This document shows positions 1,083-40,525 of a stretch of DNA of 64,000 bases, in pieces. The DNA comes from Escherichia coli (lineage in GTDB: Bacteria > Pseudomonadota > Gammaproteobacteria > Enterobacterales > Enterobacteriaceae). The stretch is taken from the NCBI RefSeq assembly GCF_003790525.1, contig NZ_CP033635.1; one strand, written 5' to 3'. Within the stretch, counting starts at the first letter, position 1; every line of letters begins with the position of its first letter. The position numbers and the translations under genes were made by a program. The notes below the pieces were generated by a model. That model was not told the origin of the DNA and did not search any database. It saw only the letters and a program-made list of their open reading frames with translations.

Positions 1083-2390
1083 ATGAAACGTGTTTCTCAA
1101 ATGACCGCGCTGGCAATGGCTTTAGGGCTGGCTTGCGCTTCTTCGTGGGCCGCTGAACTGGCGAAGCCTCTTACACTTGACCAGCTTCAACAACAAAATG
1201 GCAAAGCGATAGATACTCGCCCCAGCGCGTTTTATAACGGCTGGCCACAAACCTTAAATGGCCCTTCTGGTCATGAACCTGCCGCCTTAAACCTCTCTGC
1301 CAGCTGGCTCGACAAAATGAGCACCGAACAGCTCAACGCGTGGATCAAGCAACATAACCTGAAAGCCGATGCTCCGGTGGCGCTGTACGGTAATGACAAA
1401 GATGTCGACGCCGTCAAAACGCGACTGCAAAAAGCAGGTTTTACGCATATCTCCATTCTGAGTGACGCGCTAAGCGAACCTTCCCGTCTGCAAAAACTGC
1501 CGCATTTTGAGCAGCTGGTTTATCCGCAATGGCTGCACGACCTGCAACAAGGTAAAGAGGTTACGGCGAAACCTGCCGGTGACTGGAAAGTCATTGAAGC
1601 GGCCTGGGGCGCTCCTAAGCTTTACCTTATCAGCCATATTCCCGGCGCTGACTACATCGATACCAACGAAGTGGAAAGCGAACCGCTGTGGAACAAAGTT
1701 TCTGATGAACAACTGAAAGCGATGCTGGCAAAACACGGCATTCGCCATGACACCACGGTCATTCTGTACGGGCGTGACGTATACGCTGCAGCGCGTGTGG
1801 CACAAATTATGCTCTACGCTGGCGTGAAAGATGTCCGCCTGCTGGACGGCGGCTGGCAAACCTGGTCCGACGCGGGACTGCCCGTTGAGCGCGGAACGCC
1901 ACCGAAAGTGAAAACGGAACCGGATTTCGGCGTGAAGATCCCGGCACAACCGCAACTGATGCTTGATATGGAACAGGCGCGTGGACTGCTGCATCGCCAG
2001 GACGCCTCGCTGGTGAGTATTCGTTCGTGGCCGGAGTTTATCGGTACGACCAGTGGTTACAGCTATATTAAACCAAAAGGTGAAATAGCCGGAGCACGTT
2101 GGGGACACGCTGGTAGCGACTCGACGCATATGGAAGATTTCCATAACCCGGATGGCACCATGCGCAGCGCCGATGATATTACGGCTATGTGGAAAGCATG
2201 GAATATCAGACCAGATCAGCAAGTTTCATTCTACTGCGGCACCGGCTGGCGCGCGTCCGAAACCTTTATGTACGCACGAGCAATGGGCTGGAATAACGTC
2301 TCCGTTTACGACGGCGGCTGGTACGAATGGAGCAGCGATCCAAAAAATCCGGTAGCAACCGGTGAACGCGGCCCGGACAGCAGCAAATAA
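1083..2390 (+). CDS. ynjE: periplasmic thiosulfate sulfurtransferase (tandem rhodanese domains)
   Basis: 435 aa from second in-frame ATG; signal peptide MKRVSQMTALAMALGLACASSWA; rhodanese Cys loop CGTGWRAS. Confidence 0.88.
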   Translation: MKRVSQMTALAMALGLACASSWAAELAKPLTLDQLQQQNGKAIDTRPSAFYNGWPQTLNGPSGHEPAALNLSASWLDKMSTEQLNAWIKQHNLKADAPVALYGNDKDVDAVKTRLQKAGFTHISILSDALSEPSRLQKLPHFEQLVYPQWLHDLQQGKEVTAKPAGDWKVIEAAWGAPKLYLISHIPGADYIDTNEVESEPLWNKVSDEQLKAMLAKHGIRHDTTVILYGRDVYAAARVAQIMLYAGVKDVRLLDGGWQTWSDAGLPVERGTPPKVKTEPDFGVKIPAQPQLMLDMEQARGLLHRQDASLVSIRSWPEFIGTTSGYSYIKPKGEIAGARWGHAGSDSTHMEDFHNPDGTMRSADDITAMWKAWNIRPDQQVSFYCGTGWRASETFMYARAMGWNNVSVYDGGWYEWSSDPKNPVATGERGPDSSK

Positions 2391-2398
2391 CATTGCAA

Positions 2399-3019
2399 TT
2401 ACTGACGCTGGAGCGACTTCAGCGTCAGATACCCACTCCACACCCGCGTAAAGGTCGTCATCCAGCACAACGCACCAAATACCCACGCAAACCACGGAAA
2501 ACAGGCCGGAAAGAGGCAACTCAGAACAAACAGCAAAATCGTCTCGCTGCCTTCGGTTAACCCGCCCAGATAATAAAACGATTTATGCGCATAACCAGGA
2601 TTATCAATCTGATGTTTCGCCGCCAGCGCAGCAAAAGCGAGAAAACTGCTGCCCGTGCCGATAAACGCAAACAGCAGCCAGCCGCCTGCCAGCGCATTTT
2701 GCTCCGGTGCAGCAAGAATAAAACCAAACGGCACCAGCGCGTAAAAGAGAAAATCGAGAGAAATATCGAGAAAGCCGCCCGCGTCGGTAAGCCCTCTGCG
2801 CCGCGCCAGCGCACCGTCCAGACCATCAAGCAGCCTGTTCAACAAAATGGCGACTAGCGCCGCCAGATACCAGCCCAGCGCCAGAAAAGGCAGTGCCAGC
2901 ACGCCGATGGCAAATCCCACTAATGTTAAACCATCTGGCGTAATGCCCGGTTTATCAAGAACCCGCACGCACTGATGCAACAACGGTTTAATCCGGGGAT
3001 GAAGATGGCGGTCTAGCAC
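2399..3019 (-). CDS. ynjF: CDP-alcohol phosphatidyltransferase family inner membrane protein
   Basis: Hydrophobic ORF; second in-frame GTG has AAGGAG 5 nt upstream, giving 206 aa; ORF track starts 2 codons earlier. Confidence 0.8.
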   Translation of the reverse strand: MLDRHLHPRIKPLLHQCVRVLDKPGITPDGLTLVGFAIGVLALPFLALGWYLAALVAILLNRLLDGLDGALARRRGLTDAGGFLDISLDFLFYALVPFGFILAAPEQNALAGGWLLFAFIGTGSSFLAFAALAAKHQIDNPGYAHKSFYYLGGLTEGSETILLFVLSCLFPACFPWFAWVFGALCWMTTFTRVWSGYLTLKSLQRQ

Positions 3020-29347: not shown

Positions 29348-30643
<1,296 letters not shown>

Positions 30644-37313: not shown

Positions 37314-37661
37314 ATGAATATTCAGTGCAAACGCGTTTATGATCCGGCTGAACAGAGCGATGGTTATCGCGTACTGGTCGACCGCCTCTGGCCGCGCGGT
37401 ATCAAAAAAACCGATTTAGCCCTTGATGAGTGGGATAAAGAAATCACGCCGTCAACGGAACTGCGCAAAGCCTTTCACGGCGAAGTCGTCGATTTTGCAA
37501 CCTTTCGCGAGCAATATCTTGCAGAACTGGCGCAACACGAGCAAGAAGGAAAGCGGCTGGCAAACATCGCCAAAAAACAGCCGCTGACCCTGCTCTACTC
37601 AGCAAAAAACACCACGCAGAACCATGCGCTGGTGCTGGCCGACTGGCTACGTAGCTTATGA
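37314..37661 (+). CDS. yeaO: DUF488 family protein
   Basis: 115 aa from MNIQCKRVYDP. Confidence 0.82.
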   Translation: MNIQCKRVYDPAEQSDGYRVLVDRLWPRGIKKTDLALDEWDKEITPSTELRKAFHGEVVDFATFREQYLAELAQHEQEGKRLANIAKKQPLTLLYSAKNTTQNHALVLADWLRSL

Positions 37662-37682
37662 TTTTAGTACAGCATCCGGCGG

Positions 37683-37937
37683 TTATTTTTCACCAGCCGG
37701 ATGATCCCGTCGCCACAATGCCCATTCATCAATCGTTTCACCGCCCGGTAATTTGCAATTGTTGCTGACCCCTTGCGCTGTCTGCACTGGAATGAGCGTC
37801 CCGCCCTTCTGCTGGCAATAGACCGACGCCGGATTTGCCATACCAATCTGCGGCGGTTTAGGTGCTTCTGGCTGAGAAGAGGTTGAACAACCAGCCAGAA
37901 CCAGCAAGCAAGGCAGAACAAAACTGATAATTTTCAT
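37683..37937 (-). CDS. yoaF: DUF333 lipoprotein
   Basis: 84 aa; lipobox LAGC at the signal peptide end. Confidence 0.82.
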   Translation of the reverse strand: MKIISFVLPCLLVLAGCSTSSQPEAPKPPQIGMANPASVYCQQKGGTLIPVQTAQGVSNNCKLPGGETIDEWALWRRDHPAGEK

Positions 37938-38119
37938 TTATTGATCTCACATATTTATCCAGGCTTAGAGTATCGCGGTATCGTTTTGTTTTGCAGCACT
38001 ATTTTTATTACATTCACTCAAATCATATTACGCCTTGTTTCATCTTTGTTGATGATGTTTTATCATGCCTGCAAAGATTAAATAATCAGCATTTACCCGC
38101 CGTATCCTGGAGTTGTTTC

Positions 38120-39145
38120 GTGTCAGATCAGATTATCGCCCGCGTCTCGCAATCCCTTGCCAAAGAACAGTCACTGGAAAGCCTGGTCCGACAGCTTCTG
38201 GAGATGCTGGAAATGGTCACTGATATGGAATCAACCTACCTGACCAAAGTGGATGTCGAAGCGCGCCTGCAGCATATAATGTTTGCCCGTAACAGCCAGA
38301 AAATGCACATCCCGGAGAATTTTACCGTCTCGTGGGATTATTCGTTATGCAAACGCGCCATTGATGAAAACTGCTTTTTCAGCGATGAAGTCCCCGACCG
38401 TTGGGGCGACTGTATTGCGGCACGCAATCTTGGCATCACCACATTTCTGAGCACGCCAATTCACTTACCGGATGGATCATTCTATGGCACGCTTTGCGCC
38501 GCCAGCAGTGAGAAGCGCCAGTGGAGTGAACGCGCGGAACAGGTTTTGCAGTTATTCGCCGGACTGATTGCACAATATATTCAAAAAGAGGCGCTGGTAG
38601 AACAGCTGCGCGAAGCCAATGCCGCACTGATAGCGCAATCGTATACCGACTCGTTAACCGGGCTACCGAATCGGCGGGCGATTTTTGAAAATCTGACGAC
38701 GCTGTTTTCTCTCGCCCGGCATCTTAACCATAAGATAATGATCGCGTTTATCGACCTGGATAACTTCAAATTAATCAACGATCGTTTTGGTCATAATAGT
38801 GGCGATCTGTTTCTCATTCAGGTTGGCGAGCGCCTTAATACGCTCCAGCAAAATGGCGAAGTTATTGGTCGTCTCGGCGGTGATGAGTTTTTGGTTGTTT
38901 CACTGAACAACGAGAATACGGATATTTCGTCGCTGCGAGAACGTATTCAACAGCAAATACGTGGAGAATATCACTTAGGTGATGTTGATTTGTATTATCC
39001 CGGTGCCAGTCTTGGCATAGTAGAAGTCGATCCTGAAACGACCGATGCAGACAGTGCCCTGCATGCTGCCGATATCGCGATGTATCAGGAGAAAAAACAC
39101 AAACAGAAAACACCTTTTGTCGCGCATCCAGCGCTACATTCCTGA
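38120..39145 (+). CDS. dgcP: GAF-domain diguanylate cyclase
   Basis: 341 aa from GTG (VSDQIIARV) with GGAG 7 nt upstream; canonical RLGGDEF (K-12 yeaP); the ORF-track extension has no support. Confidence 0.85.
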   Translation: MSDQIIARVSQSLAKEQSLESLVRQLLEMLEMVTDMESTYLTKVDVEARLQHIMFARNSQKMHIPENFTVSWDYSLCKRAIDENCFFSDEVPDRWGDCIAARNLGITTFLSTPIHLPDGSFYGTLCAASSEKRQWSERAEQVLQLFAGLIAQYIQKEALVEQLREANAALIAQSYTDSLTGLPNRRAIFENLTTLFSLARHLNHKIMIAFIDLDNFKLINDRFGHNSGDLFLIQVGERLNTLQQNGEVIGRLGGDEFLVVSLNNENTDISSLRERIQQQIRGEYHLGDVDLYYPGASLGIVEVDPETTDADSALHAADIAMYQEKKHKQKTPFVAHPALHS

Positions 39146-39177
39146 GGCGTATTCACATCCTTTTGATTGGTGATAAC

Positions 39178-39276
39178 ATGCGAATCGGTATTATTTTTCC
39201 GGTTGTAATCTTTATTACAGCGGTCGTATTTTTAGCATGGTTTTTTATTGGCGGCTATGCTGCCCCGGGAGCATAA
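39178..39276 (+). CDS. yoaK: small membrane protein (32 aa)
   Basis: Hand translation MRIGIIFPVVIFITAVVFLAWFFIGGYAAPGA; below ORF-track cutoff. Confidence 0.6.
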   Translation: MRIGIIFPVVIFITAVVFLAWFFIGGYAAPGA

Positions 39277-39278
39277 AG

Positions 39279-39353
39279 ATGAAAAAAACAACGATTATTA
39301 TGATGGGTGTGGCGATTATTGTCGTACTCGGCACTGAGCTGGGATGGTGGTAA
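39279..39353 (+). CDS. yoaJ: small membrane protein (24 aa)
   Basis: Hand translation MKKTTIIMMGVAIIVVLGTELGWW, starting 2 nt after the yoaK stop. Confidence 0.55.
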   Translation: MKKTTIIMMGVAIIVVLGTELGWW

Positions 39354-39411
39354 CGTCACATCTAGAAAATAGCAAAGGCTGCCTGTGTGCAGCCTTTGTG
39401 CAATTTACGCG

Positions 39412-39660
39412 TTAACTTTTAATCTTTCTGTAGATAAACAGCACGACAATCGCGCCAATAACGGCAACCACGAAGCTGCCAAAATTGAAGCCATCGACTT
39501 TACCAAAGCCAAACAGCGTGCTGATCCATCCGCCGACTACGGCACCGACTATCCCCAGCAGGATAGTCATAAAGAATCCACCACCATCTTTACCTGGCAT
39601 GATCCACTTCGCCAGAATACCGGCAATAAGCCCAAAAATAATCCATGACAGAATGCCCAT
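39412..39660 (-). CDS. yeaQ: GlsB/YeaQ/YmgE family stress-response membrane protein
   Basis: 82 aa, Gly-rich transmembrane helices. Confidence 0.85.
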   Translation of the reverse strand: MGILSWIIFGLIAGILAKWIMPGKDGGGFFMTILLGIVGAVVGGWISTLFGFGKVDGFNFGSFVVAVIGAIVVLFIYRKIKS

Positions 39661-39807
39661 TGTTTCCTCACTTATCTGTTTTGCATTAGCGGGTTAGTCG
39701 CTGATAAAAAGCATAGCACAACATCGGGAGGGCAAGATTTGTGACGAGCATCACGGAGGATTTTTTTGCGATGGCGCAGAAATTGCGCCATCAACGATCA
39801 GTGATAA

Positions 39808-39990
39808 TTACCAACCACAAACATCATGTTCGTTTTCCGTGTCATAAGAACGCACGGTATTCACCAGATCTTTTATCACTTCAGCCGCCACTTCTGGCAC
39901 CAGCAAAGTCATCGGCGTCTCTGTTTCATAATCGACAGAAACGCCATTGCTGTTATTGGTGACGGTCACGGTATACGTTGCTTTGCCCAT
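39808..39990 (-). CDS. yoaG: DUF1869 family protein
   Basis: 60 aa; directly downstream of yeaR (4-bp gap), same strand. Confidence 0.8.
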   Translation of the reverse strand: MGKATYTVTVTNNSNGVSVDYETETPMTLLVPEVAAEVIKDLVNTVRSYDTENEHDVCGW

Positions 39991-39993
39991 GAT

Positions 39994-40353
39994 TCATTTC
40001 CCGTTATGAATGACTTTCCGTTGTTGCGCACCTTCCATCAGGACTTCAGGGGCAACGAAGAAGTCAATGTTGAAATAAGTATCGTCAGTCATGGCTTCAA
40101 TGTTGTGCCACTTTTCTGGAGGGAACACCGCAAACTGCCCCGCTTCGATAAGGATCACTTGATCAGGCTCTGTACTGTGTTCATCAGCGTAGCCGAGATA
40201 TTTGACCGCCCCATGCATAACGGAAAGGCGTGGGTAAACCCCCGGGCGCGTTCCTTTATCAAGATGACGTTCGAATATTCCGGCAGGCGCAGTTTGTTTA
40301 TTCCAGAAAGGCGTTGAGCGCGTATGAATATAATTCTGTGGGATTTGCAGCAT
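39994..40353 (-). CDS. yeaR: DUF1971 family protein
   Basis: 119 aa. Confidence 0.85.
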   Translation of the reverse strand: MLQIPQNYIHTRSTPFWNKQTAPAGIFERHLDKGTRPGVYPRLSVMHGAVKYLGYADEHSTEPDQVILIEAGQFAVFPPEKWHNIEAMTDDTYFNIDFFVAPEVLMEGAQQRKVIHNGK

Positions 40354-40419
40354 CCTTTTCCCTCCTTCGGTGAATGCGCTGAAAACGGTTTATTTCAGCC
40401 GTTTCAGGGTACGCCTGAT

Positions 40420-40442
40420 AATTTGCATTTTAAATACCATTT
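40420..40442. promoter_or_regulatory. NsrR-like 11-1-11 inverted repeat upstream of yeaR
   Basis: AATTTGCATTT-T-AAATACCATTT resembles the NsrR consensus AAGATGCATTT-N-AAATGCATCTT (9 of 11 and 7 of 11 matches); 67-89 bp upstream of the yeaR start. Confidence 0.35.
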
Positions 40443-40525
40443 ATTGGTTACTATTTAGCACCGTATCAGAGAAAAATCAGGGAGGATTACAGATGGGAAG
40501 CCCGCGACAACGCGGGCTGAAAGCA

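Follow-up and report, generated by a model that had tools for sequence, protein, structure and literature searches.

The small membrane proteins YoaK and YoaJ are almost certainly the products of two tandem open reading frames (ORFs) in a 64,000-nucleotide stretch of an Escherichia coli genome (contig NZ_CP033635.1; hereafter the window), and the best overall explanation of these ORFs is that they encode single-helix inner-membrane peptides from the last cistrons of the dgcP transcript. The first ORF occupies window positions 39178–39276 on the plus strand and translates to MRIGIIFPVVIFITAVVFLAWFFIGGYAAPGA (32 amino acids, stop codon TAA). The second lies at 39279–39353 on the same strand and translates to MKKTTIIMMGVAIIVVLGTELGWW (24 amino acids, stop codon TAA), separated from the first by the 2-nt spacer AG at 39277–39278. 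An earlier interpretation of this DNA made without database searches, the sequence-only reading, had described two such ORFs 2 nt apart, had likened them to the small proteins YoaK and YoaJ, and had placed them between a GAF-GGDEF gene and yeaQ. Retranslation gives exactly the same peptides. The neighbors are also those described: on the 5′ side, dgcP (yeaP), a GAF-GGDEF diguanylate cyclase gene and the first gene of the unit, mapped from the RefSeq annotation to 38120–39145 (+), and on the 3′ side yeaQ at 39412–39660 (−), which RefSeq annotates as an 82-amino-acid membrane protein of the GlsB/YeaQ/YmgE family and which lies outside the unit.

These names are borne out by RefSeq, which uses them at the same coordinates, and by equivalog matches in NCBIfam. 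In E. coli genomes the RefSeq Prokaryotic Genome Annotation Pipeline labels yoaK as WP_001219350.1, “YoaK family small membrane protein,” and yoaJ as WP_001386836.1, “protein YoaJ.” YoaK scores 69.1 bits against NF033821 (cut-off 32) over residues 1–32 of 32, and YoaJ scores 60.4 bits against NF011343 (cut-off 54) over residues 1–24 of 24. The copy of Pfam that was searched holds no YoaK or YoaJ model; a newer Pfam family, PF28021:YoaK, is assigned to YoaK homologs by precomputed labels. No Rfam family matches the region from 37500 to 40500 at E-values up to 1. Both amino acid sequences are identical to those of E. coli K-12 and lie in the same locus, dgcP-yoaK-yoaJ facing yeaQ, with the same 2-nt spacing; there is no difference at the protein level, while the window DNA comes from a non-K-12 strain and is approximately 98.3% identical to that of a laboratory strain. 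It is 100% identical to the DNA of E. coli RS571 (NZ_CP034389.1), except for an IS1 element in the RS571 dgcP gene. Of 5426 complete E. coli genomes, 5418 match the 801 bases around the site, and 80% or more of these bases are found in 5402. The RefSeq gene order runs dgcP, yoaK, yoaJ and the convergent yeaQ, followed by yoaG, yeaR, leuE and dmlR. The first description of YoaK (32 amino acids) and YoaJ (24 amino acids) came from the Storz and Rudd laboratories (Hemm et al. 2008, as cited in PMC4597795). Both genes are already known and annotated, and identifying them again adds nothing to the gene catalog. The literature still describes the function of YoaK and YoaJ as essentially unknown, in agreement with the sequence-only reading.

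Short ORFs are not significant alone, as 91 ORFs of at least 20 amino acids overlap the 4.5 kb around the site. The case for real genes is made by frame-specific purifying selection, by intact frames in nearly all related loci, and by scores above curated family cut-offs. A concatenated YoaK+YoaJ query against one-genome-per-species collections returned 46 related loci from Escherichia, Citrobacter, Enterobacter, Lelliottia, Salmonella enterica subsp. arizonae and diarizonae, Kluyvera, Yokenella, Silvania and Huaxiibacter. In 43 of these 46, neither ORF is disrupted. The remaining three are a contig end (L048), a draft C. sedlakii assembly (L027) that lacks one base in the run of A residues at the yoaJ start, and a single-contig C. 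amalonaticus assembly (L031) with one extra base in the run of G residues at the yoaK end. Since the two frameshifts both sit in homopolymers, they are possibly sequencing errors.

Across the 46 loci, the proportions of synonymous (pS) and nonsynonymous (pN) differences are 0.69 and 0.07 for yoaK (dN/dS 0.039) and 0.62 and 0.17 for yoaJ (dN/dS 0.143), values to be read with a slight upward bias in amino acid conservation because the loci were recruited by exact 8-residue peptide matches. Reading this DNA in shifted frames yields ratios of 1.2–4.9, all above 2 for yoaK and above 1 for yoaJ. Synonymous sites are near saturation, yet the frames are intact across about nine genera. Third codon positions account for 27 of 48 variable sites in yoaK and 21 of 45 in yoaJ, and the YoaK amino acid sequences of Salmonella arizonae and diarizonae are identical although their DNA differs. 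Conservation analysis, which the sequence-only reading had proposed as a check, favors it, with low dN/dS in the annotated frames only. At the level of sequence, these data are clear evidence that selection acts on both peptides, rather than on an RNA or a fused product, and that the pair appears to have been kept coupled.

The arrangement of the two cistrons is variable in detail and constant in outline. YoaJ is encoded directly 3′ of yoaK, 2 nt away in the window and at −4 to +3 nt in 43 related loci. The stop-to-start spacing is +2 nt in Escherichia, Salmonella and the C. freundii group, 0 nt (TAAATG) in Enterobacter, Lelliottia, Silvania and Huaxiibacter, +3 nt in C. amalonaticus, −1 nt (TAATG or TGATG) in Yokenella and one Citrobacter, and −4 nt (ATGA) in Kluyvera. 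The start codon of yoaJ is GTG in six loci, and a Klebsiella-like locus has an overlapping YoaJ ORF with a GTG start, VKKSTILMIIIAVIALAGVQFGWW. In the same Klebsiella-like locus (L056), a small ORF for which no gene is called, MKKPIVLSLMLALCTLLSGCIVDDGYHHRHHHHHYDGRGW at 2847–2969 (+), has a lipoprotein-type signal and a run of histidines and sits between the YoaJ-like ORF and a DUF2534 gene. Because adjacency is constant while the relative frame shifts from locus to locus, yoaK and yoaJ must be read as two separately translated peptides.

A Shine-Dalgarno sequence for yoaJ, GGGAG at 39267–39271 (+), lies within the last P-G-A codons of yoaK and 7 nt 5′ of the yoaJ ATG, and CCGGGRGC is kept at this position in at least 40 loci. 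Ribosomes terminating on yoaK probably re-initiate on yoaJ, a form of translational coupling suggested by the location of the yoaJ ribosome-binding site inside yoaK and of its ATG 2 nt past the yoaK stop. The yoaK gene itself is preceded by a weak Shine-Dalgarno-like motif, GGTGA at 39169–39173 (+), 4 nt 5′ of the ATG and presumably used for ribosome binding; loci of Escherichia, Enterobacter and Citrobacter amalonaticus have (A)GGTGA in the corresponding position. Longer in-frame versions starting at TTG 39163 (37 amino acids) and ATG 39237 (38 amino acids) were excluded, since the upstream sequence and the frame relation are unconserved and the Enterobacter yoaK stop abuts the yoaJ start. 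The protein collection also holds an in-frame YoaK-YoaJ fusion of 57 amino acids (P0002), consistent with one G having dropped out of the CCGGGAGC run, together with several frameshifted read-through versions (among P0001, P0004, P0005, P0008, P0016 and P0024). All are probably sequencing errors or gene-calling artifacts at homopolymers.

Only 32 nt separate the end of dgcP from the start of yoaK, and a resource based on RNA sequencing lists a yeaP-yoaK-yoaJ operon in K-12 (PMC4620388). Between yoaJ and yeaQ, a G+C-rich hairpin at 39373–39398 with a 10-bp stem and a 6-nt loop (−21.1 kcal/mol, z = −2.9) coincides with a terminator-like scan match on the minus strand and is a probable two-way terminator; a comparable hairpin was seen by eye 3′ of yoaJ in most of the related loci inspected. 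The idea that dgcP depends on sigma-S was set aside, since the literature instead gives vegetative control and, in every growth phase, DgcP expression that is among the stronger for diguanylate cyclases. Expression of DgcP is reported to be higher at 37 °C in a uropathogenic strain. Promoter-like sites in the region number 2, against 3.9 expected in shuffled sequence. The plus-strand site at 39152–39179 overlaps the yoaK start codon and cannot serve yoaK. The minus-strand site at 39325–39297 lies in yoaJ and points antisense toward yoaK (ACGACA, 17 nt, CATAAT; 9 of 12 matches). It is probably a chance occurrence, because it does not exceed what shuffled sequence would give and covers conserved Ile-Ile-Met codons.

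The pair is not tied to either neighbor. In most genera of the 46-locus set dgcP lies directly 5′ of yoaK. It is missing from the locus in Salmonella arizonae and diarizonae (L035 and L037), C. amalonaticus and C. sedlakii (Citrobacter loci L018, L023 and L027). In these loci yoaF lies directly upstream of the deletion scar, and a remnant of the last dgcP codons persists approximately 60–40 nt before yoaK, reading AAAACCCCTTTTGTCACCCATTAA in C. amalonaticus and encoding K-T-P-F-V-T-H-stop. The remnant indicates that dgcP was deleted and yoaK-yoaJ kept; the pair is intact in all but two of the dgcP-less loci. On the other side, yeaQ is missing beside the pair in E. albertii, another Escherichia species, Kluyvera sichuanensis and Yokenella. 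Since both neighbors vary, the conserved unit is the yoaK-yoaJ pair itself, and its independence from DgcP weakens the obvious guess of function by association. Within E. coli, the IS1A element of strain RS571 (L158, NZ_CP034389.1, 340–1110, corresponding to about window position 38940) splits dgcP into two pseudogene fragments, with yoaK and yoaJ intact on its 3′ side.

The single transmembrane helix that the sequence-only reading assigned to each peptide fits the sequences, the published topology of YoaJ, the data on tagged YoaK and a structural model. AlphaFold2, run on YoaK and YoaJ joined by a flexible linker, placed one helix in each peptide (residues 3–26 and 57–77) with low confidence (mean predicted local distance difference test score, pLDDT, 60; predicted template modeling score, pTM, 0.32). 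Immunoblots show low levels of YoaK tagged at its chromosomal locus; it is among the less well expressed members of the first small-protein set, and a screen for substrates of the protease RseP handled it as a small membrane protein of type II. Experimental work from 2011, as cited in PMC4597795, confirmed a type II (N-in/C-out) topology for the small membrane protein YoaJ, whose N-terminus, MKKTT, fits the positive-inside rule. An HA-MBP-YoaJ fusion is integral to the membrane and co-immunoprecipitates with RseP but remains uncleaved in that form (PMC4597795); the co-immunoprecipitation depends on the MRE beta-loop. In a later screen, purified RseP cleaved both YoaK and YoaJ in vitro, and both were listed as “class II” substrates. 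The accumulation of 3xFLAG-YoaJ falls in an RseP-dependent manner, and chromosomal RseP gave no detectable cleavage of HA-MBP fusions of YoaK or YoaJ.

A working model can be assembled from these data. Each peptide probably spans the inner membrane once, with a short, positively charged cytoplasmic N-terminus and few periplasmic residues. The two are translated separately from the end of the dgcP transcript, which probably stops at the hairpin shared with the convergent yeaQ, and re-initiation on yoaJ after yoaK would cause both to be produced together. The pair could then act as a small accessory to, or modulator of, a larger protein of the inner membrane, with RseP providing turnover. DgcP would not be required, the pair having outlived dgcP deletion, and YoaK would be the older, portable component, as members of its family stand alone behind other GGDEF genes and behind prophage repressors. 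By analogy with other small membrane proteins, it is possible, though well short of probable, that YoaK and YoaJ form a small hetero-oligomer, itself subject to turnover by RseP, that binds and modulates a larger protein of the inner membrane. Several points weigh against it. No partner protein, phenotype or activity has been reported for YoaK or YoaJ, and a deletion covering yoaK and yoaJ has no fitness effect in exponential growth in M9 glucose. The AlphaFold2 linker model, at its pLDDT of 60 and pTM of 0.32, gives no support for a specific YoaK-YoaJ heterodimer. No YoaJ accompanies the YoaK homologs outside the dgcP locus among those read, which indicates that YoaK generally does not need YoaJ. 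The recruitment bias in the 46-locus set counts on the same side.

The wider YoaK family was approached through a full phmmer scan of 1.84 billion representative proteins, which gave 25 matches, several of them frameshifted read-through gene calls. The genuine distant members all exceed the NCBIfam cut-off, with 43.8–70.5 bits on NF033821. Across 59 distinct members, the family is defined by a length of about 32 amino acids, one hydrophobic helix, and the conserved elements M-[RK]-x-G, F-P, A15, W-F and G-G-Y-A-x-P; F7, P8, W21, F22, G26, Y27 and A28 were partly fixed by the pattern of the viral search described below, and are also conserved in nearly all of the independent phmmer matches. The chromosomal class of distant members follows GGDEF genes, among them DgcP-like GAF-GGDEF genes. 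In L051 (1383–2635) a YoaK-like ORF follows a MASE5-GGDEF gene, with 11 nt from the GGDEF stop to the internal ATG of the ORF and no room for a YoaJ-like ORF, and in L153 (1740–2525) a YoaK homolog follows another GGDEF gene. In both of these loci, a second GGDEF gene converges on the YoaK homolog from the other strand. A tblastn search of the plasmid set with YoaJ found only chromosomal-type copies, and the plasmid-set matches are mostly chromosomes or chromosome-sized records filed as plasmids. YoaJ itself was encountered nowhere but beside yoaK of the chromosomal, dgcP-locus type.

A second class of YoaK relatives is found in prophages, in two settings: after CI-like repressors with a Peptidase_S24 domain, with divergent Cro/CII genes, and after HTH_3 repressors of Rac-like prophages, with divergent YdaS/YdaT genes. 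BstA_C and Imm_superinfect genes lie near the prophage relatives, and in six E. coli genomes RefSeq gives such prophage copies the name “YoaK family small membrane protein.” In the lambdoid phages HK106, mEp234 and mEp506, the annotated pRM-to-Timm immunity operon contains a 32-amino-acid ORF, MRIGIVFPILVFIVAMGFMAWFIIDGYATPSG, which is placed between cI and hicA-hicB and is without annotation in the GenBank records of all three. In HK106 this ORF is at 1562–1657 (+) of EF120461.1 (L061), equivalent to 30464–30559 (−) of NC_019768.1, with an AGGGA motif 8 nt before the ATG. A 39-amino-acid YoaK-family coding sequence of the Klebsiella phage ST974-OXA48phi18.2 (L060, MK448237.1, 2480–2599) is mislabeled “CI transcriptional regulator.” The true repressor-like gene of that phage is a 131-amino-acid helix-turn-helix gene just upstream, labeled “putative repressor Cro.”

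A degenerate DNA pattern of the YoaK motif was used to survey viral sequences in IMG/VR and returned 91 contigs (L062–L152), all 91 matches being intact ORFs of 31–34 amino acids with a start codon where expected. In 34 of the contigs, the match lies in dgcP-type host flank at the edge of a predicted prophage; the other 57 have YoaK copies that do not belong to the dgcP type. In 43 of these 57, the YoaK-like ORF follows a repressor ORF on the same strand, whose end lies 12–172 nt upstream. The 43 repressors form five sequence clusters; 20 have HTH_3 only, and 23 have HTH_3 together with Peptidase_S24, and this second group splits into four clusters that share less than 40% identity. The genes 3′ of the phage copies are variable and include HigB, HicA, HipA_2, an IrrE-like Peptidase_M78, NYN, DUF6414, DUF7946/7947, a ParA-like ATPase and an SDH-type protease. 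Phage yoaK copies have a dN/dS of 0.11, compared with values above 1 in shifted frames. No YoaJ-like sequence was found by tblastn in the phage collection or 3′ of the prophage YoaK copies read. The prophage ORFs share with E. coli YoaK its family, its length, approximately 61% identity and the pattern MRxG..FP..A..WF..GGYAxP. They differ from E. coli yoaK in following a repressor rather than a diguanylate cyclase, in lacking YoaJ, and in preceding variable cargo that resembles toxin–antitoxin or defense genes. The likeness to lambda rexA/rexB is one of position only, with no similarity to RexA or RexB. The yoaK gene of the window is not in a temperate-phage repressor operon; it is chromosomal, follows dgcP, and has no prophage genes nearby. 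No paper discussing the prophage association of YoaK was found in the literature searched. This association and the confinement of YoaJ to the chromosomal dgcP-type locus are modest new leads, and the former suggests a phage/lysogen angle on a family that has been without a phenotype since 2008.

The best-surviving alternative to an accessory pair follows from the prophage data. The YoaK family could at root be a phage-type lysogeny gene, made together with the repressor and protecting or conditioning the lysogen, for example by keeping superinfecting phage out at the inner membrane or by helping the adjacent toxin or defense cargo. The upstream repressor in 43 of 57 non-dgcP-type viral contigs argues for such a role, as do the HK106/mEp234 ORF between cI and hicAB in the slot of the immunity operon that lambda gives to rexAB, the variable cargo with BstA_C and Imm_superinfect nearby, and phage copies that are under selection (dN/dS 0.11) and over the NCBIfam YoaK cut-off. 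Repressor adjacency, however, shows co-expression in lysogens rather than function, and no experiment ties any YoaK to phage resistance. We consider this origin unlikely, and the further step, in which the chromosomal copy was domesticated, less likely still, given that in many genera this copy occupies a stable locus outside any prophage. If true, it would make E. coli yoaK a domesticated phage gene. A fuller version, in which YoaK is a mobile, lysogeny-expressed membrane protein that excludes superinfecting phage or gates the adjacent cargo, and one copy of which was captured and attached to a diguanylate cyclase operon, with YoaJ added as a partner, to serve in membrane defense or envelope sensing, is in our view unlikely.

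It is similarly doubtful that YoaK and YoaJ serve cyclic di-GMP signaling by acting on or with the upstream diguanylate cyclase, for instance by localizing or modulating it at the membrane. This reading would explain why yoaK directly follows dgcP in most genera and why distant homologs follow other GGDEF genes (L051 and L153). However, no hydrophobic segment was seen on reading DgcP, the cytoplasmic part of YoaK amounts to only about three residues and so offers little contact surface, the pair was retained after dgcP deletion in several lineages, and the prophage copies of YoaK have no GGDEF neighbor.

The two peptides could also act mainly as substrates or modulators of RseP, as decoys or competitors that tune its activity. 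Such a role would accord with the in vitro cleavage of both, the RseP-dependent fall in 3xFLAG-YoaJ and the MRE beta-loop-dependent co-immunoprecipitation. It is nevertheless improbable, as HA-MBP fusions are not detectably cleaved by chromosomal RseP, overexpressed HA-MBP-YoaJ barely affects RseA cleavage, and RseP cleaves many small membrane proteins, which looks like general turnover.

Similar size and hydrophobicity, together with the minus-strand promoter-like site in yoaJ (39325–39297, 9 of 12 matches), could suggest type I toxin-like peptides (Hok, Ldr, Ibs or TisB) under the control of an antisense RNA. This is very improbable: the region has no Rfam match and fewer promoter-like sites than shuffled sequence (2 against 3.9), the genes form the mRNA tail of a diguanylate cyclase whose expression spans all growth phases, YoaK with a tag at its chromosomal locus accumulates, and the RseP screens report no YoaK or YoaJ toxicity, unlike that of the Hok proteins. 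That yoaK and yoaJ are chance ORFs or mis-annotations without a product can be dismissed almost entirely, for although ORFs of 20–40 amino acids are abundant by chance, the idea is refuted by low dN/dS in the annotated frames only, by frames intact over about nine genera (pS 0.62–0.69), by matches to curated hidden Markov models, and by published protein detection and topology.

Among known systems, YoaK and YoaJ resemble the type I toxins as small hydrophobic peptides of the inner membrane, and HokB–HokE are RseP substrates in the same screen as YoaK and YoaJ. They differ in having no Rfam match, no described antisense RNA and no reported toxicity, and in being encoded in the tail of a housekeeping-type mRNA. 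The tentative reading of an accessory pair takes its models from other single-helix small proteins, AcrZ, MgrB and CydX, whose partners are AcrB, PhoQ and cytochrome bd, respectively; AcrZ, for example, is an efflux pump regulator. Like these three, YoaK and YoaJ have fewer than 50 amino acids, one transmembrane helix, an inner-membrane location, strong conservation, and genes beside or within larger operons. Unlike them, they have no known partner or phenotype, and they form a coupled pair of two different helices, an arrangement that is unusual in this group.

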